This document shows positions 1 to 10,943 of a stretch of DNA of 31,522 nucleotides, one piece after another. Position numbers and translations under genes: made by a program. The stretch spans positions 1-31,522 of the forward strand of contig JANRLW010000053.1 of the NCBI GenBank assembly GCA_033762295.1. The letters are read 5' to 3'. Under the pieces are notes generated by a model. It saw nothing but the letters and a program-made list of their open reading frames with translations. It did no database searches and had not been told where the DNA came from. The DNA comes from Capsulimonadales bacterium (GTDB taxonomy: Bacteria > Armatimonadota > Armatimonadia > Armatimonadales > Armatimonadaceae). Positions within the stretch are counted from its first letter, which is position 1, and each line of letters opens with the position of its first letter.

Positions 1-747
1 GCCCGAAGACCGGATGCCACTGGTAGGTGGTCGCAAGATACCACCTATTAATAAATCGTTTCAATCCTCATCCGGCCCGAAGACCGGATGCCACGCTCCG
101 GGGACAGGCGTTTGTAGCCCGGTGCCTTAGTTTCAATCCTCATCCGGCCCGAAGACCGGATGCCACAGGATGACCACGTCCGCGCCGATCAGCGTAGCGG
201 TGTTTCAATCCTCATCCGGCCCGAAGACCGGATGCCACTCGACAACCTCCTGTTTCAGTTGAACCAAAAACTGGTTTCAATCCTCATCCGGCCCGAAGAC
301 CGGATGCCACGGAATGTCACTCGGCGCGAAACGGCTACGGAATGGTTGTTTCAATCCTCATCCGGCCCGAAGACCGGATGCCACGCGGACAGTAGTCGAT
401 CTGGTTCGCCACCAGATCGAGTTTCAATCCTCATCCGGCCCGAAGACCGGATGCCACTCGATGTCCAGAACCTCCGAAAAACACCCGTTACCTGTTTCAA
501 TCCTCATCCGGCCCGAAGACCGGATGCCACCCAACGAACAGGCTACCGGTCTGCTGCTTGACGAGTTTCAATCCTCATCCGGCCCGAAGACCGGATGCCA
601 CAGGGGGGCAAGACGTTCTATGCGCCGACGGTCAAGCCGTTTCAATCCTCATCCGGCCCGAAGACCGGATGCCACTCGCAGGAAGACGTTCAAACCGTCG
701 CCGGGGAATGGTTTCAATCCTCATCCGGCCCGAAGACCGGATGCCAC
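1..747 (-). CRISPR. CRISPR array, 37-bp repeat GTGGCATCCGGTCTTCGGGCCGGATGAGGATTGAAAC (minus strand), truncated by window start
   Basis: Ten identical full repeats start at 58, 130, 202, 274, 348, 421, 494, 565, 639 and 711, plus a partial repeat at 1-20. Spacers are unique, 34-37 nt. The repeat has a hairpin (CATCCGGTC-TTCG-GGCCGGATG) and a 3' ATTGAAAC end, which gives minus orientation, the same as the cas genes. Confidence 0.99.
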
Positions 748-787
748 ACTGGTGACAGTTGCGAGGCGGTCTCCTTTCTCCGGCATC

Positions 788-821
788 TTGCGGCACCCCG
801 TGGACGCCCGGAGTGCCGCAA
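788..821. repeat. Inverted repeat/hairpin between cas7 stop and first repeat
   Basis: TTGCGGCAC (788-796) pairs with GTGCCGCAA (813-821); no U-tract. Confidence 0.6.
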
Positions 822-832
822 CCCGTACTGGA

Positions 833-1708
833 TCAGCCCTCGATGAGGCGTGTCAACGCGACTTTGCCTTCGTAGTCGTCGGGGACACGCGGACCGGCGA
901 CGACGTAGTCGTCGAAGCGGCGCGGGGTTTCCACCCCGTCCTTTTTGCGGACGACGAGGGTGTCGAAGAGTTTATGAGCCGGTGCGTTACCGAGTGGGGT
1001 TTCGTGGGTGAAGACGTAGAGTCCGCGACAGGCCATCATGCCACGGGCGGCGGAACGGTCGACGTCCCACATCATTTGAAGTGCGTCCCAGAACAGGGTC
1101 AGGTCGTCTGCTGTCACGCCGGTTTGCGCGGCGAGCGCCGCAGAGACGAAGCCACGGGCGACATAGAGGGCGTACGGCAAGAGCGTTTTACGGCCCATGG
1201 TCCGGTTGTCACCGCTCTGAGCCGCCGCTTCCTTGGTGGTAGCGACGGCCATGCGGGTGATGGGGAGGTCGAGCGGGGCGACAGGGTCGATGCTGCGTCC
1301 GAAGGTGAACTGAATGGGGCCGCGCACCTGCCCGGCGTTGGACTCCTTCAGGGACATGACAGCTCCGAAGAGGCGGACGTCATAGAACAGTTCGCACATC
1401 TTGCGGCGGGCATCGGCGACGGTGGCCTTGCTGCCGAGAGCGTCGTAGGCCCGCTGATGCTGCTGGGCGAGAACGGCCTTTTCCTGAACGTAGATCTCGC
1501 TGCCGGGCGCACCGGGTCGGGCGGCGGCGACGTAGTTGCGGACCTTGCGCTTGAGGCAGACATCGGTCACGATACCGTGGCCGGTCTGCGGGTCGGTGCG
1601 GGGCAGGTTCCCTGCGTCGGGGTCGCCGTTGGGGTTGCCGTCAGTGACGTCGAAGAGCAGCAGGAAGTCGTGGCGTCGAGCCGGGTCGGTATGGAGAGTG
1701 ACGGACAT
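833..1708 (-). CDS. cas7c: Type I-C CRISPR backbone protein Cas7/Csd2
   Basis: Motifs [57 protein letters not shown] are typical of Csd2. Confidence 0.97.
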
Positions 1709-4919: not shown

Positions 4920-5025
4920 GTTCATGCCCCGCAGAAGCGCCAACTTCTGCGGGTTTTTGTTTGCCTCCCATATTGCCGCGATGCGATTCTACGTTTCGAT
5001 CCTCGTCGCTTGAAAGCAACGCCTT
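4920..5025 (-). ncRNA. Putative crRNA-like regulatory RNA (pseudo-repeat, ~35-nt spacer, hairpin)
   Basis: 4993-5023 minus reads GGCGTTGCTTTCAAGCGACGAGGATCGAAAC: a 7-bp stem plus 11-nt handle AGGATCGAAAC (array: AGGATTGAAAC). The next hairpin begins one spacer length later. Confidence 0.6.
4928..4962 (+). terminator. 10-bp hairpin with T-tract on + strand; also candidate second pseudo-repeat on - strand
   Basis: CCCGCAGAAG-CGCCAA-CTTCTGCGGG followed by TTTTTGTTT. Confidence 0.6.
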
Positions 5026-5123
5026 TAACCAGATGCTATTACCGACGGAAGTAATGTATTCACCTTCCATATTTCACGTGAGACTCTACGAAGTTTTACA
5101 ACCGTCTTCCTGGTTTCAAACGG

Positions 5124-5167: not shown

Positions 5168-7519
5168 TCACCGAATTAGTTTTTCCGGCGAGTGCGGGCG
5201 GACACGGTCGTTGGGATCGTGCAGGAGCGGGACGCCGGTTTTGGGGTCGTAGGAACCTTCATAGACGATCAGGCCGGGGACGGGTTCGGACAGACCGTCG
5301 GCCTGGTTCGGGTAGAGTTGGACGCAGAACGGATGGAGTTTGCGCCAGTCGGAGCGTGTCAGACCGCCGCGCCGGTCGGCATCACCCAAGAGGGTATCGA
5401 GATCGAGAGACAGGTCGACCGCAGCGCGAGCGAGGACGGTGACAGTATCGTCGGGAATGAGGCGCATTTTTCGGGCGACTTCGGGAAAGTCGAAAGCGCG
5501 GATGTCGGGCATCACCCTATGGGCGTCGGTGGCGTCGTTGAGTTCGCGGATCATTTCGCGGAACCAGGCGGTGACGTTTTCCGGATCATCGAAATCGAAC
5601 GCTTCGCCCCGGTCGGCGGCGCGGCGAAGGGCGTTGACGGTTTTATCTCGCGCTTTTTTATAGATCGGATCGGAAGGAGTACGGTCTTCGGCAGGGCGGA
5701 AGAGGGTGACGAGGCTGTCCTGCCAGGGGCGTCTGCCTTCGCGGTTGCATCGACCGGCGGCCTGAATCAGGGACGGGAGCGGGGCGAGGGCGCGGAAAAG
5801 TCGGGGAAAGTCGACATCGACGCCCGCTTCGACGATGGAGGTGGAGATTAGGCGAGTCGGCAGACCGGCAGCGAGGCGCGCGCGAACGTCGTCAAGAACG
5901 CGGCGGCGATGTCGCCCGCAGAGCAGAGTTGACAGGTGGAAGACGGACGGGTCTGTACGATCCGGGTCGAGCGCATCGACGAGTTCGATCGCCTGTTTCC
6001 GGGTGTTGACGACGCAGAGTACGGTCGGCTCGGAGCGCAGTCGTTTGGCGAGCGCGGAGGAATCGAGTTCGGGCAGGTCGGTTTCAAAGCGGACGCGGCG
6101 GAGGCGACGAAAGTGGGGCGCTGGGTCGCCGACGATCTCGACCGGACGGGGATCGAAGCCGCGGAACCAGGGGGTCCGTTCCTCAAAGGCGGGCTGTGTC
6201 GCCGTGCAGAGAACGACGGTGACGCCGAAGGCGGCGGCGAGCGTTTTCAGAGCTTCGATGAGCGGGCGTAACAGGCCGGCAGGCAGAGATTGGACTTCAT
6301 CGAGCAAGAGAACGCTATCGGCGATCCGGTGTAGTTTACGGCAGCGGGCGGGGCGTTGAGAAAACAGGCTTTCAAAGAGTTGCACCTGGGTCGTGACGAT
6401 AAGAGGCGCATCCCAGTTTTCGGCGGCGAGGCGGCGACGGAGGGCGGTTTCTCGACCGTTGTCTGTGGCGTCATCGGAGGGGGTATCGATTTCCGCGGCG
6501 GAGTGGTGTTCAAGAACGATCCCGGTGTTTTCGCCGAAGATTCCTTCGAACACGGCGGCGGTCTGGTCGAGGATGCTGGTGAACGGGGCGGCATAAATGA
6601 TCCGCCGCTTGCCGTGGCGGACGGCATGCTCCAGCGCGAAGGCGAGGGAGGAGCGTGTTTTTCCTCCGCCGGTGGGTACGGTCAGAGTGAAGACGCCGGG
6701 GCGCTCAACCGCGCGGGCCAGGCAGTCGGCGAAGACGGCGCGCCGCACCTGATGGACGGGATTTTCGCCGTTTCCGGCGGCGTCCGCTTCGGCGCGAAGT
6801 CGTTCTTGGTCACGTAGGAAGGCGGCGCGGAGGTCGGCGAGCGGCGGTGATCGGCGCGTTGCTTCCTCGCGTTGTCGAGCGGTATCGGGGGAAACATGTT
6901 TTTCGGTATCGAGTGCGTCGGCGTCGACCAGACAGGAGAAAACGAACCGCAGGTACATTTCGGCGGCTTCGCGAGTTCGAATCGCAGGTGGGTAGAGGAC
7001 CCCCGGATCGGGAAACGGGGGGACGAGAGCAGGGGAGACACTACGGGCGCGTTCGACGAGGGCGGGGAAGGGCAGGACAGCGTATTGCTGACGTTCCTGT
7101 GCGCCATCGCGGGTGTCCTGCCGATTTTTCATTCCTCCGTGATGGCCGAAGAGGACCTGTGCGAGCGGGTCGCCGAAGGCCGCGTTTTCCGCGTGCGCCA
7201 GTAACGCGCCGGTCTGTTTGTGGGGAGCGGAACCCGGTTGCGGTTTCTCGGAGATTTCGCCGCGATCAAACCGGAAGCACTGTCGCAGGTAGTTTTGAAA
7301 TCCGTCATCGAACTTGCCGAGATCATGGAGAAGGCCAACGTAGCGGGCGGTGGCGGCACCGCCAAAGGGAGTGGCAAACGATTCGGCAAGGTGGGCGACG
7401 GCGAGCGTATGGTCGACGAGATCGTGCCATTCCGGGTTATCGCGGGAGGGGGTATGGGCGACGAATTGGTCGGCGTCCGGCAATGCCTGGGTTGATTTCG
7501 AGAAAAGATAATCCGACAT
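5168..7519 (-). CDS. cas3: CRISPR-associated HD nuclease/helicase Cas3
   Basis: HD domain (HDLVDH, LLHDLGK, LVDADALD), Walker A PTGGGKT, LEHHS, DEVQ, EAGVDVDF, QAAGRCNREG. Start placed at MSDYLF (7519); exact start uncertain. Confidence 0.96.
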   Translation of the reverse strand: MSDYLFSKSTQALPDADQFVAHTPSRDNPEWHDLVDHTLAVAHLAESFATPFGGAATARYVGLLHDLGKFDDGFQNYLRQCFRFDRGEISEKPQPGSAPHKQTGALLAHAENAAFGDPLAQVLFGHHGGMKNRQDTRDGAQERQQYAVLPFPALVERARSVSPALVPPFPDPGVLYPPAIRTREAAEMYLRFVFSCLVDADALDTEKHVSPDTARQREEATRRSPPLADLRAAFLRDQERLRAEADAAGNGENPVHQVRRAVFADCLARAVERPGVFTLTVPTGGGKTRSSLAFALEHAVRHGKRRIIYAAPFTSILDQTAAVFEGIFGENTGIVLEHHSAAEIDTPSDDATDNGRETALRRRLAAENWDAPLIVTTQVQLFESLFSQRPARCRKLHRIADSVLLLDEVQSLPAGLLRPLIEALKTLAAAFGVTVVLCTATQPAFEERTPWFRGFDPRPVEIVGDPAPHFRRLRRVRFETDLPELDSSALAKRLRSEPTVLCVVNTRKQAIELVDALDPDRTDPSVFHLSTLLCGRHRRRVLDDVRARLAAGLPTRLISTSIVEAGVDVDFPRLFRALAPLPSLIQAAGRCNREGRRPWQDSLVTLFRPAEDRTPSDPIYKKARDKTVNALRRAADRGEAFDFDDPENVTAWFREMIRELNDATDAHRVMPDIRAFDFPEVARKMRLIPDDTVTVLARAAVDLSLDLDTLLGDADRRGGLTRSDWRKLHPFCVQLYPNQADGLSEPVPGLIVYEGSYDPKTGVPLLHDPNDRVRPHSPEKLIR

Positions 7520-7596: not shown

Positions 7597-8580
7597 TCAG
7601 AATTCGTTGTAAATCGTTTTCAGACGGTGGAGTTCCTGGCGGATCGTCTGGCGTAGTTCGGCAGGTTCCATTACCTCGACTTCCGCACCGTAGCCGAGAA
7701 TCCAGCGGGTAAGGTCTTCGGTGAGGGCGACATGCAAGGTGATGATCAGTCCGCCGTCGTCCTGTTCGTGATTGTGCTGGGTCGCATGGTAGCGGCGTTC
7801 CCGAATCCAGACGGCCTGTCGCGCGGAGAAGCGGAGACGTACCGAGACCGGATTACCGCCTCGCTGGAGTTGGAACGCGGTTTCAAGGTAGGAACGGATA
7901 TCGAAGTCCGGAGGAACCGTGAAGGTCTCGTCGTCGGGCAGAAGTCGCCAGTGTCGGATGCGGGGGAGAAAGAAGTGTCTCAGGTCCGTGCGCCGTTCGC
8001 AAAAAGCGATCAGATAGAGTTCGCCACGCCAGTTGAGGAGGGTATAGGGCCGAACGATCCGTTCGGTGATCTCACCTCGGTGCGCTCCGAAGTAGGTGAT
8101 ATCGAGTCGACGACGTTGTTCAAGAGCGTGGCGGATGTCTCGCAGCAGTTCTTCAGGAATCAGGAACTCGTCCGCGAGGCGAATGCGACCGGTCAGGATT
8201 TCCTGTCCGTCGGAAGCAAAATCATCGTGCCGGGGCAGGTCGCGCAGGTAGGGAGAGAGTCGGACGGCGAGTTGGCGGACGAGGGCCGCATCCGTCGGCG
8301 GCAGGTAGCTCTGAGCGGCAAGAAGGGATTGCCGGAGGGTATTCGCTTCGGTTTCGGTGAGAGCGAGGTAGGGCAGTCTGTAGGTGGGTTCCGTGTAGTA
8401 GTAGCCGCGTCGGGCGGAATGGAAGACGAGCGGTGCGCCGATGCGTTGCCGCAGATGGCGGATATCTTCCTTCGCCTGTCGTTCCCGGATGCCGAAGGTT
8501 TCGCACAAGTCCTTCCAGTGGGGGTAACGGCGCTCACGAATGCGGGCATCCAACCAATACAATCGTTCGAGGCTTGACAA
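7597..8580 (-). CDS. HTH-WYL-WCX transcriptional regulator (PafB/PafC/DriD-like)
   Basis: N-terminal wHTH (DLCETFGIRERQAKEDIRHLR, RRGYYY), WYL (RIVRPYTL..RGELYLIAFC..R..LRHFFLPRI), WCX (WILGYGAEVEVMEPAELR). Likely TTG start at 8580 with AGGAG RBS. Confidence 0.92.
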   Translation of the reverse strand: MSSLERLYWLDARIRERRYPHWKDLCETFGIRERQAKEDIRHLRQRIGAPLVFHSARRGYYYTEPTYRLPYLALTETEANTLRQSLLAAQSYLPPTDAALVRQLAVRLSPYLRDLPRHDDFASDGQEILTGRIRLADEFLIPEELLRDIRHALEQRRRLDITYFGAHRGEITERIVRPYTLLNWRGELYLIAFCERRTDLRHFFLPRIRHWRLLPDDETFTVPPDFDIRSYLETAFQLQRGGNPVSVRLRFSARQAVWIRERRYHATQHNHEQDDGGLIITLHVALTEDLTRWILGYGAEVEVMEPAELRQTIRQELHRLKTIYNEF

Positions 8581-8889
8581 TTTTAAATCTCCTGTCAGGT
8601 TGTTTGCCGAGGGATCGTTTTTTTCCTGTGGAGAACGGCGTTCCGTTGTAACGACCGAGAGAAGAACCGACAACCGCGCCGTGTCCGATGTGCGGGATGA
8701 GGCATAAAAGGTGAAGCGCCGGGATACAGTTGTGGTAGGAGGCACGAAGTGGCGACGACGTTTGGGGAGCGGAACGGGCTTCGTTCGGAACTGGTAGGCG
8801 GGATTCCGGCCTGGCGACGTATACCTCGCTGGTGGCGTTAACCCTGGCTTGCGGCTGCGATATGACGATTTAGCGGGCGACGGAACGGG

Positions 8890-9156
8890 TTATCGGTGTT
8901 CCCAGAGGGCGTCCTGCCATCGTCGGTAGAGGCGGACGGCGTCCCGAATGTTGACGTAGGCGAGTCCGGTGTTGAGCAGGGCGAAGGGGAGCAGGATGAG
9001 GAGGAGGGACCCGTGACGGGCCTCCCCGGCCCAGACGAAGAGGCACTGAAGAAGAAGAAAGATCGATACGCCGATCGCCACTTCGAGGGCTTTCCAGAAG
9101 AAATCCGACTGCGTTTCGCGAACCCGGGCCGGTAGATGTTTTTTGTCGGATGGCAT
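8890..9156 (-). CDS. Small hypothetical membrane protein (2 TM)
   Basis: MPSDKKHLP...; two hydrophobic stretches; GGAG upstream. C-terminal part of the listed 8890..9750 ORF. Confidence 0.55.
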   Translation of the reverse strand: MPSDKKHLPARVRETQSDFFWKALEVAIGVSIFLLLQCLFVWAGEARHGSLLLILLPFALLNTGLAYVNIRDAVRLYRRWQDALWEHR

Positions 9157-9359
9157 GGTCAGCGCGTCGCTCCCTGTGAATAGTGTGTACTTTTGTATGC
9201 AATTATCGGGAGAAAGATCGTTCTTCTTGAGGGCCTCCGGTGGCGTGCCGGTCCTCTCGCAGGTTCGGTCACGAAAGGTCGTCGGGCCGGCGGACGACGC
9301 GGGAAAGGTGGCCGACTTCGGACACCCGGCACCCGATACCCGGCAGGGTACAATAGGCC

Positions 9360-10943
9360 GTGAATTCCGAACCTTCCTCTTCGATACCGCCGACCGGAAC
9401 GGTGTACCTGGTCGGGGCGGGACCGGGCGATCCCGGTCTGCTGACACTCGCCGGTCGTCAGGCGTTGACCCGCGCCGATGTGGTGATCTACGATCGACTG
9501 GCCCATCCCTCGCTACTGCGATTTGCACCGCCCGACGCCGAGCGATTGTTCGTCGGCAAACAGTCGGCCCATCATTTTGTCCGCCAGGAGGACACCAATG
9601 CGCTGATGGCGGAACGCGCCCGCGCCGGGAAGACCGTGGTTCGCCTGAAGGGGGGCGATCCGTTCGTTTTCGGGCGTGGCGGCGAGGAAGGCGAATACCT
9701 CCGGGCGCAGGGGGTGCCGTTTGTCGTGGTGCCGGGGGTAACGTCGGCAATCGCCGCGCCGGCCTACGCCGGGATTCCGGTGACGCACCGGGATGCCGCG
9801 TCGTCGTTCGCGGTGATCACGGGGCATGAACGGGCCGAGGAGCGTGAGTCGGGCGAGCGGGCGGCGGGTCAGGCGGAGCAGCGGCGACGGTGGGACCGGA
9901 TCGCGTTCGCCGCCGATACGCTGGTCTTTTTGATGGGGGTGGAGGCGTTGCCGGAGATTGTCGCGCGCCTGATCGAGCACGGGCGGTCGCCGTCGACCCC
10001 GGTCGCGCTGGTGCAGTGGGGGACGTGGACACGGCAACGGGTGGTGACGGGCAATCTGGAGACGATCGTCGAGATCGGGAAGACCGCCGGAATCACCGCG
10101 CCCGCCGTGACCGTGATCGGGGAGGTGGTTCGTTACCGCGAGACCCTGCGCTGGTTCGATGTCGGGCCGCTGTTCGGGAAGCGCGTGCTGGTGACCCGGG
10201 CGCGCGAACAGGCGTCGACGCTGGCGGAGGATCTGCGGGCGCGGGGCGCGGAACCGATCGAGTTTCCGACGATCCGGATCACCCCGCCGGCGGACGATTA
10301 CGCGGCGCTGGAGGCGGTTCTGGCGGTCGACGCTCCCGCGTTTGACTGGGTGGTGTTTACGTCGGCCAACGCGGTGTCCCATGTTTTCGACTGGCTCCTG
10401 CGGACCGGGCGCGATGCCCGGACCTTTGCGGGATGCCGGATCGCGGCGGTGGGAACGGCGACGGCGGAGGCGCTGAAGGAACGCGGTATCCTGGCGGATT
10501 TCGTGCCGTCCGAGTTTGTGGCGGAGGCGGTCGTGGCGCAGTTTCCCGAACCGGTGCGGGGACGGCGACTTCTCCTGCCGCGCGCCACCGAGGGGCGGGA
10601 AACGCTGGCCGATCTGTGGCGCGCGCAGGGCGCGTTGCCGGAGGTGGTGGCGGTCTACCGAACGGAACGGGAGACCGAGGGCGCGGACGAGATACGGGCG
10701 ATGCTGGCGAACGGGGAGATCGACGCAATCACTTTCTCCGCGTCCTCGACGGTGAGGAATCTGGCGACGGCGCTGGCGGGGGCGACGGTTCCGGAGGGGG
10801 TCTGTCTGGCGGCGATCGGTCCGGTCACGGCGGAGACCTGTCGGGAACTGTTGCGTGAGCCTGATTGTATCGCTGATACGCATACGATGGACGGGTTGAC
10901 GGCGGCTCTGGCGCAGTGGTTCGAGCGGAACGCCGCCGTGTAA
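9360..10943 (+). CDS. cobA: Fused uroporphyrinogen-III C-methyltransferase / uroporphyrinogen-III synthase (CobA-HemD)
   Basis: VYLVGAGPGDPGLLT, RLKGGDPFVFGRGGEE, VPGVTSAIAAPAYAGIPVTHR, then HemD part (LFGKRVLVTRAREQA, WVVFTSANAV, TFSASSTV). Confidence 0.95.
   Translation: MNSEPSSSIPPTGTVYLVGAGPGDPGLLTLAGRQALTRADVVIYDRLAHPSLLRFAPPDAERLFVGKQSAHHFVRQEDTNALMAERARAGKTVVRLKGGDPFVFGRGGEEGEYLRAQGVPFVVVPGVTSAIAAPAYAGIPVTHRDAASSFAVITGHERAEERESGERAAGQAEQRRRWDRIAFAADTLVFLMGVEALPEIVARLIEHGRSPSTPVALVQWGTWTRQRVVTGNLETIVEIGKTAGITAPAVTVIGEVVRYRETLRWFDVGPLFGKRVLVTRAREQASTLAEDLRARGAEPIEFPTIRITPPADDYAALEAVLAVDAPAFDWVVFTSANAVSHVFDWLLRTGRDARTFAGCRIAAVGTATAEALKERGILADFVPSEFVAEAVVAQFPEPVRGRRLLLPRATEGRETLADLWRAQGALPEVVAVYRTERETEGADEIRAMLANGEIDAITFSASSTVRNLATALAGATVPEGVCLAAIGPVTAETCRELLREPDCIADTHTMDGLTAALAQWFERNAAV

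Follow-up and report, generated by a model that had tools for sequence, protein, structure and literature searches.

In CRISPR-Cas systems of type I-C, solitary repeat units (SRUs) that encode CRISPR RNA (crRNA)-like RNAs (crlRNAs) supervise genes located between cas3 and cas5c; the consulted parts of the preprint name Nezha, Gabija and eight 'CRISIS' systems, the cargos of the latter being Sir2; PHP-ATPase; an ATPase with a partner; TIR with caspase; TIR with SLATT; 2TM; 3TM with MBL; and the three-gene Tudigong (Shu et al., bioRxiv 10.1101/2024.12.27.630466). The published crlRNA comprises a hairpin, an 11-nt handle and a 3′ end that falls in the loop of a 3′ hairpin, promoters under its control are repressed 5- to 60-fold, and SRUs are recognized there by a stem-loop, the conserved 3′-terminal 7 nt of the repeat and a TTC (or TTA) protospacer-adjacent motif (PAM) (10.1101/2024.12.27.630466). 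Here we describe a degenerate single repeat in the 877-bp gap between cas3 and cas5c of a type I-C locus from a Capsulimonadales bacterium (phylum Armatimonadota; assembly GCA_033762295.1); the stretch analyzed, i.e., positions 1 to 31,522 of the forward strand of contig JANRLW010000053.1, is referred to as the window. Comparative analysis indicates that this element is a real, well-supported crlRNA-type self-regulatory unit, accompanied by a new candidate effector.

Related arrangements have been described in other subtypes, and the likenesses and differences given here extend to the portions of each source that were consulted. In the type I-F system of Acinetobacter baylyi ADP1, CreA-CreP, the effector complex together with CreA RNA represses the promoter of the gene for a 103-aa protein (10.1101/2024.01.05.574328). 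There, as here, the interval from cas3 to the first effector gene contains a degenerate mini-CRISPR and the gene for a small protein (of 103 aa in CreA-CreP and 121 aa in the window); CreA-CreP differs in subtype, in its processing by Csy4, in its 8-nt handle, and in its toxin, a KilA-C domain protein that stops cell division, whereas the protein encoded here has a predicted PD-(D/E)xK-like fold. The Cas-regulating RNAs (CreR) of types I-B, I-E and V-A exert an autorepression that can be relieved by crRNA abundance, and I-C creA-like elements were found by hand in the same study (10.1101/2023.03.10.532045). CreR is likewise a degenerate mini-CRISPR whose guide partly matches a promoter region, in that case of the effector genes, but it stands alone without a partner gene, whereas a conserved partner follows the guide in all 8 complete leaders compared below (in one of them, L109, the gene is apparently frameshifted). 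CreTA of the Haloarcula hispanica type I-B system includes CreT, a small RNA toxin that sequesters a tRNA (PMC8501985). The likeness lies in the CreTA feature of a CRISPR-derived guide with degenerate flanking repeats that represses its neighbour via Cascade without cleavage; unlike in CreTA, the regulated gene here encodes a protein and not an RNA toxin.

The closest correspondence is with the type I-C SRU systems as described in the preprint parts consulted: the subtype is the same, the same operon gap is filled by a non-cas gene, the unit has a hairpin pseudo-repeat that carries an 11-nt handle, followed by one pseudo-spacer and a 3′ hairpin, and near the cargo promoter lies a TTC-flanked partial match whose unpaired bases include positions 6 and 12 and the PAM-distal part, with position 9 in addition in the window. 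In the CRISIS systems, the SRU stands after the cargo, directly before cas5c, and the target is 37–46 bp upstream of the cargo start; here, the SRU is in the 5′ leader, before the cargo, and the target is at about +28 on the sense strand (relatives vary, and all starts are predicted). In our comparison the SRU precedes the cargo in 8/8 leaders, and a PAM at –39 to –37 relative to the predicted start was found in L104 and L106 only. The cargo is none of the eight described, although it is possibly listed in Supplementary Data 1 of that preprint. Likewise, in the literature consulted on crlRNA, CreA and CRISIS we found neither the cargo family, nor a leader-placed SRU, nor any example from this phylum, a negative on which the supplementary tables of the preprint may bear. 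The principle of the switch is thus already known, and the original prediction overstated its novelty, since repression of inserted genes by type I-C SRUs of the cas3-cas5c gap, acting on partial targets next to a TTC, had been described (10.1101/2024.12.27.630466); what is new is a cargo with a PD-(D/E)xK-like fold and the placement of the unit in the cargo's 5′ leader. From the sequence comparisons set out below, we consider it likely that the element is an SRU whose product is a CreA/CreR-like crlRNA, and that it belongs to the 5′ leader of a small operon that has been inserted in the cas3-cas5c gap. Its guide RNA very probably steers the CRISPR complex to the unit's own promoter and keeps a nuclease-like gene switched down, and perhaps the same guide would also lower the complex's own genes.

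Anatomy of the element in the cas3-cas5c gap

All genes of the locus are on the minus strand, and the stretch from cas3 to the 121-aa cargo gene measures 327 bp (coordinates are collected in Table 1). On the minus strand, the pseudo-repeat reads GG-CGTTGCT-TTCA-AGCGACG-AGGATCGAAAC (5023-4993), compared to GTGG-CATCCGGTC-TTCG-GGCCGGATG-AGGATTGAAAC for the repeat of the CRISPR array. Its stem of 7 pairs, including one G-U, has a 4-nt loop and ends at the handle; the handle AGGATCGAAAC is identical to the array repeat end AGGATTGAAAC at 10 of 11 positions, and the last 7 nt (TCGAAAC in the pseudo-repeat, TTGAAAC in the array repeat) agree at 6 of 7. The array repeats are spaced at 71–74, giving spacers of 34–37 nt, and the 35-nt pseudo-spacer falls within this range. 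Between the pseudo-spacer and the 3′ hairpin are the 4 nt AAAA, where a true repeat would have GTGG, and the sequence past the hairpin, GCATGAACCGG, has few bases in common with the handle. The element is a single degenerate repeat and as such falls outside the canonical definition of an array, i.e., at least two near-identical, regularly spaced repeats.

A protospacer-like site preceded by TTC, the type I-C PAM, is found on the same strand as the guide, 97 nt upstream of the pseudo-spacer; relative to the predicted start, the TTC is at about +25. At 5089-5079 the site matches pseudo-spacer positions 1–5, 7–8 and 10–11, and a block AATATGGxAGG is present in both guide (positions 19–29) and site (17–27) with an offset of 2. 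Thus, three features by which SRUs were recognized in the type I-C preprint are found in the window: a stem-loop with a 3′-terminal repeat match, a TTC-flanked partial target, and a 3′ hairpin. The features on which the original prediction was built, i.e., the pseudo-repeat with its paired stem and TTCN loop, the 10/11 handle, the spacer of about 35 nt, the hairpin, the TTC site and the offset block, were recovered base for base.

Is this arrangement more than chance resemblance? With at most 1 mismatch, the handle occurs at 70 sites of the genome, relative to about 33 non-array sites expected (hand calculation from base composition), so that the handle by itself means little. Outside arrays, the handle (at most 1 mismatch) with an abutting stem of at least 7 bp occurs at 2 sites only, the window element and C22:12414 on another contig, both of them inside type I-C Cascade operons. 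TTC with at most 1 mismatch at guide positions 1–5 and 7–11 was found at 4 sites in 10.3 million positions (about 2.7 expected by hand calculation), and one of the 4 falls in the 327 bp that separate cas3 from the 121-aa gene, where the chance of a background site is about 2e-4. The handle/target arrangement in the window is not due to chance. The remaining 3 TTC-seed matches to the window guide agree with the expectation of about 2.7 and were set aside as background, and the other handle-like genome sites (C31, C69, C81, C103 and C122) were taken as chance, since none of them has, within 2.5 kb, a TTC site with fewer than 2 mismatches.

The 3′ hairpin (4953-4928) has no T-run on the minus strand, i.e., the cas strand, and should therefore not terminate transcription of that strand. 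Read on the plus strand, 4928-4962 presents the hairpin followed by TTTTTGTTTG and scores as an intrinsic terminator; no supported plus-strand gene runs into this signal. With the T-run confined to the plus strand and no supported gene there, a role of this hairpin as terminator was rejected. A 73-aa frame spanning the unit (5070-4849) was not taken as a gene, as it has no Pfam match and no ribosome-binding site (RBS) was seen before it. An Rfam scan reported only CRISPR-DR9/DR29 array repeats (in the window and 4 related loci), and not the pseudo-repeat.

Covariation of guide and target in related leaders

The DNA of the gap was unmatched in related genomes (0/40), and the comparison was therefore made via proteins. 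Among Cas5c proteins elsewhere, identity to that of the window does not exceed 56%. A word-index protein search with the 121-aa protein returned itself alone; a full HMMER search returned 4 other matches, 2 of them full-length (weak), and a profile of three family members, run against a sample of 401 genomes of this phylum, matched in 13, one of them the genome of the window, with 7 of the 13 at E < 1e-10. Eight regions (L103-L110) were examined, and the Cas proteins of the window were mapped onto them. Together with the window this gives 9 distinct loci (the window, L104-L109, the partial L110, and L103), where L103 and the metagenome locus L092 gave the same tblastn rows and were counted as one, and 8 complete leaders (the window and L103-L109), L110 being cut inside the family gene.

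The cargo family gene is located directly upstream of cas5c in all 9 distinct loci. The gene order is cas3, family gene, cas5c, cas8c, cas7c in L104-L109; L110 has the cut family gene followed by cas5c-cas8c-cas7c, and L103/L092 has a WYL regulator, the family gene, cas5, cas8, cas7 and cas3. One leader plan is conserved in 8/8: promoter, handle-like motif, unrelated pseudo-spacer, strong hairpin, second hairpin, RBS, gene. The handle-like motifs of the 8 leaders (AGGATCGAAAC, GGAGTTTAAAC, AGGATTGAAAC, AGGATTGAAAT, GGGATTGAAAC, AGGGTTGTAAC, AGCGTTGCAAC and TGGATTGTAAC) are identical to the array handle at 8–11 of 11 positions in the loci where an array was seen, and the array repeats seen in the relatives end in (A/G)GGATTGAAAC. 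The strong hairpin is found 33–46 nt past the handle in every leader, and a TTGACA-led promoter is predicted at the same place in all 8. A second long hairpin is also present in all 8, between the guide's 3′ hairpin and the RBS; its stem sequences vary and its loop motif, TATGATACC or TTGTATC, is shared. This second hairpin has no Rfam match, and RNAalifold run on the 8 leaders returned the 3′ hairpin and short helices only, the alignment being too loose for the long hairpin. A GAACCAAC-like motif was observed after the first leader hairpin.

To compare guides and targets, the 35 nt after each handle were taken as the guide and each leader was searched on both strands. Every pseudo-spacer differs, and each partly matches a site in its own leader (8/8). 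The number of seed mismatches at sites with TTC is 0 in L105 and L106, 1 in the window, L104, L107 and L108, and 2 in L109; the L103 guide has 1 seed mismatch at a site whose PAM is GTC. TTC together with at most 2 seed mismatches was found for 7/8 cognate pairs versus 0/56 non-cognate pairs (non-cognate minimum 3), and in a shuffled-seed control 97/16000 reached this level with TTC. Spacer and target therefore covary in a PAM-linked manner, which was the test in related genomes that the original prediction had set for itself. Its central proposal, that a one-spacer crRNA-like guide would bring type I-C Cascade to a partial TTC site about 25–55 nt past the promoter, is supported by this comparison.

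The distribution of mismatches is informative. Position 6 is unmatched in 8/8 cognate pairs, and positions 6 and 12 are always unmatched in the 7 loci that have no or one seed mismatch. Through position 18, the mismatches in L106 are at 6 and 12 only, and through position 23 those in L103 are at 6, 8, 12 and 18. L105 and L106 fully fit the published pattern, in which mismatches are confined to 6, 12 and the PAM-distal end, and the window and L107 have an extra mismatch at 9. Every sixth base is flipped out in Cascade pairing, as described in the consulted parts of the type I-C preprint (10.1101/2024.12.27.630466). Mismatches at 6, 12 and 18 together with a PAM are thus as Cascade recognition predicts, and neither an RNA hairpin nor a protein operator would produce them. 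The likeness between guide and target exceeds the seed (the AATATGGxAGG block in the window, positions 18–23 in L106 and L103); the comparison suggests that the guides derive from their own targets and have since degenerated through substitutions and small indels.

These features bear on whether the element might act at the RNA level, i.e., that Cas5c binds or cuts the pseudo-repeat to free the cargo mRNA from its leader or to decoy Cascade subunits, with the upstream match being no Cascade site. The weakness of the window match (9 pairs, mismatch at position 9) is in keeping with such a role, as is the antisense site on the guide's transcript in 6 relatives, where an RNA hairpin around the handle is possible. 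Yet an RNA hairpin needs no PAM, and TTC flanks 7/8 sites against a TTC background of about 1% (hand calculation); a hairpin would favour pairing at 6, 12 and 18, exactly the mismatched positions; and the window site, being on the guide's own strand, is unable to pair with the guide in RNA. We regard an RNA-level element as improbable.

Could the leader repeats instead be operators for a WYL-domain regulator or another protein, with the repeat-like motif a functionless remnant of a decayed array? The gene for a WYL/WCX regulator is found upstream of cas3 in both the window and L104, and in L103/L092 it immediately precedes the leader; the TTGACA –35 hexamer is at the same place in 8/8 leaders, the window and L092 sharing CTTGACACC there. 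An operator sequence would be conserved, but guide and site change together in each locus (0/56 cross-matches), and in a remnant the handle, the spacer length and the 3′ hairpin would not have persisted across 8 diverged loci, so that this explanation appears very improbable to us. The WYL/WCX regulator genes themselves are at 7597-8745 (–) in the window, 8319-9275 (–) in L104 and 160-1206 (+) in L103, and the promoter may carry a second, protein-based control through this regulator. In L103/L092, a 15-bp perfect inverted repeat spans the cargo start codon.

With the guides assigned, the geometry of the sites was compared relative to start sites, all of which are predicted. In L104 and L106 the PAM is at –39 to –37, i.e., the published type I-C geometry; in L105, L107, L108 and L103 the site falls within the 55 nt that open the transcript and is antisense; and L109 has a weak site only, at –95. 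The position of the window site is not unusual in this group, and its strand is. In L109 (G086:C23) the cargo gene seems to lie in two frames, the result of a frameshift or of an error in assembly, and this locus also has the weakest guide-target match, with 2 mismatches and far upstream.

Several observations weigh against the reading of the element as a Cascade-guiding SRU. A search for sequencing runs containing the stretch turned up no RNA run; one DNA run had a small share (0.05) of the words. Guide and site pair at no more than 9 positions in the window, position 9 being a true mismatch and no in-register pairing occurring past 11; the window site is on the sense strand, compared to antisense in 6/7 relatives, and is downstream of the predicted start and not 37–46 bp upstream as published. 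The pseudo-repeat stem is absent from the minimum-energy fold of a 116-nt stretch, in which other pairing wins; it does form when the 34 nt preceding the handle are folded alone. Of the original expectation that handle, stem and target be conserved in homologous loci, the handle-like motif and the 3′ hairpin (8/8) and the target (7/8 with TTC) held, but the handle-abutting stem is clear in 3/8 leaders only (the window, L104 and L107), weak in L106 and absent in 4. Finally, the window cargo is divergent, being 19–36% identical to other members of its family, and is without their H-T..Q motif.

The cargo gene and a proposed switch

The cargo family, as recovered with a profile of its typical members, comprises 37 clusters among 5.8 billion, none of them named. 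No family member reaches a Pfam, NCBIfam or PADLOC cut-off, with sub-threshold matches to Hjc, AHJR-like and YraN only. An AlphaFold2 model of the cargo from a 35-sequence alignment (pLDDT 89.8, pTM 0.80) has the topology alpha-beta-beta-beta-alpha-beta-alpha, in which the PD-(D/E)xK core fold alpha-beta-beta-beta-alpha-beta is present; the single-sequence model was unusable (pLDDT 40.6). The top Foldseek matches are archaeal Hjc resolvases (probability 0.99, E 5e-3, TM 0.41–0.46). The family motifs are P-D and E-x-E-S, with E or S where the K of (D/E)-x-K is expected, plus H-T..Q; in the window cargo, PD is at residues 45-46 and E-T-E-S at 61-64. The window cargo has PD and E-T-E-S without H-T..Q, and the L103 member has lost both. 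Nuclease activity of the cargo is plausible.

The position of this gene raises the question of whether the element is a pure Cas autoregulator of the CreR type, which would set cas5c-cas8c-cas7c via read-through with the 121-aa gene as a passenger or ordinary Cas accessory. In the window, a consensus scan found no terminator-like site between the cargo gene and cas5c, which would allow such read-through. In a survey of 80 type I-C loci from other phyla, under strict criteria, an SRU and TTC-flanked target occur directly before cas5c in 5/80 without a full-length cargo (two with a short Arg-rich open reading frame (ORF)), and creA-like I-C elements with targets adjoining the effector-gene promoter are reported in the consulted parts of the CreR study (10.1101/2023.03.10.532045). 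Against this, cargo family and SRU occur together in 8/8 complete leaders with the SRU always upstream of the cargo RBS, a hairpin with a T-run follows the cargo gene in L107 and L110 and argues for a separate unit there, and the predicted nuclease-like fold suits a supervised effector. On balance we find the pure autoregulator unlikely, if still worth keeping in mind. The 5 surveyed loci, being independent instances of an SRU and a TTC-flanked target ahead of cas5c, also speak for the reading of the element as an SRU. Two alphaproteobacterial type I-C loci (Acidiphilium, L090:3600-3870, and Acidocella, L049:1100-1390) have a conserved short ORF between the TTC target and the SRU; it has a strong RBS and begins M-R-R-R (MRRRQKLTIRL... 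and MRRRHRLSIKL...), and a terminator-like hairpin closes the unit ahead of cas5c. This short ORF looks like a CreT-like or small-protein partner.

For a Cascade-guiding SRU that supervises the cargo, the following mechanism is proposed. Transcription would start at the promoter (5152-5124), and Cas5c would cut the base of the pseudo-repeat hairpin to give the 11-nt handle AGGAUCGAAAC. Cascade (Cas5c, Cas8c and Cas7c) would then assemble on this RNA (handle, 35-nt guide, 3′ hairpin), read the TTC at 5092-5090 and pair about 9 of the first 11 bases (5089-5079), approximately 28 nt past the predicted start. The match being too short for a full R-loop, Cas3 would not be recruited, and Cascade would act as a roadblock that lowers its own leader, the 121-aa gene and, with read-through, cas5c-cas8c-cas7c. 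The promoter would be freed by loss of Cascade, by its titration with many crRNAs or by an anti-CRISPR that blocks the complex. We infer processing, binding and repression from the features of the locus, along with a role of the cargo as a toxin or abortive-infection effector.

A broader proposal is put forward tentatively, as possible but short of an even chance. The locus may represent a Cascade-supervised nuclease-like effector module, so far of this phylum, with the crlRNA in its own 5′ leader and an effector that would be released on Cascade inhibition or loss, acting in abortive infection, anti-anti-CRISPR defence or addiction; the second hairpin (4918-4875, with its TATGATACC-like loop) may be a further control element, and repeat-derived RNAs may wire Cascade into gene control more widely in this genome. 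The genome has a second, Cascade-only type I-C operon (cas8c, cas5c, cas7c; L010 8815-12097, –) with no cas3 or array nearby. Exactly at the cas8c stop/cas5c start, at C22:12404-12450 (–) (= L010 about 10405-10451), is a repeat-derived element with the stem CATCCGCC/GGCGGATG, a 15-nt loop, and then 16 nt identical to the 3′ end of the array repeat (GGATGAGGATTGAAAC); the opening codons of cas5c would form its 'spacer'. A search for TTC targets gave no convincing site, the best having 2 mismatches, 98 nt upstream. The element might mark where Cas5c cuts, or where Cascade is loaded onto, the mRNA that carries it.

Locus layout and significance

The window's array repeat is also found on contig C76 of the same genome, in further copies. 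The interval between cas7c and the array in the window contains no cas4, cas1 or cas2, and Cas1 (PF01867) was not found anywhere in the 94.5%-complete assembly. This Cas1-less genome nonetheless has two types of array repeat (C53/C76; C54) and two Cascade operons.

Table 1. Positions of the element, its leader and the neighbouring genes in the window.
Feature	Position	Strand	Basis or remark
WYL/WCX regulator gene	8745-7597	–	upstream of cas3 (Pfam)
cas3 (HD nuclease + helicase), upstream neighbour of the element	7594-5168	–	Pfam Cas3_HD, DEAD, Cas3-like_C_2
Terminator-like hairpin with T-run, cas3 end	5168-5191	–	consensus scan
Sigma-70-like promoter, TTGACA-17-TAATAT	5152-5124	–	10/12 consensus matches; predicted start near 5117
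TTC, type I-C PAM of self-target	5092-5090	–	sequence comparison
Protospacer-like self-target	5089-5055	–	about +28 to +62 of predicted start
Pseudo-repeat: stem 5021-5015/5010-5004, loop TTCA, 11-nt handle AGGATCGAAAC at 5003-4993	5023-4993	–	
35-nt pseudo-spacer (putative guide)	4992-4958	–	sequence
3′ hairpin, 10-11 bp	4953-4928	–	consensus scan + folding
Second long leader hairpin, 12-bp stem, conserved loop motif TTGTATC/TATGATACC	4918-4875	–	folding
RBS AGGAGGG of cargo gene	4850-4844	–	
121-aa cargo gene	4840-4475	–	PD-(D/E)xK-like fold (predicted)
cas5c (type I-C pre-crRNA endonuclease)	4290-3556	–	Pfam Cas_Cas5d
cas8c (Csd1)	3559-1721	–	Pfam
cas7c	1708-833	–	Pfam
CRISPR array, 37-nt repeat	1-748, continues past window edge	–	repeat + Rfam scan

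The finding extends CRISPR-guided self-regulation of the crlRNA/CreA/CreR kind to a further bacterial phylum and a new partner gene, and the 8 diverged loci, in which guide and target change together, constitute a clean natural experiment. Searches for such switches gain a wider pattern, given that the regulatory unit can lie in the leader of the cargo itself and that targets occur on both strands, upstream as well as downstream of the start. In addition, the analysis nominates a nuclease-like family of about 120 aa as a candidate toxin or defence effector under the supervision of Cascade.

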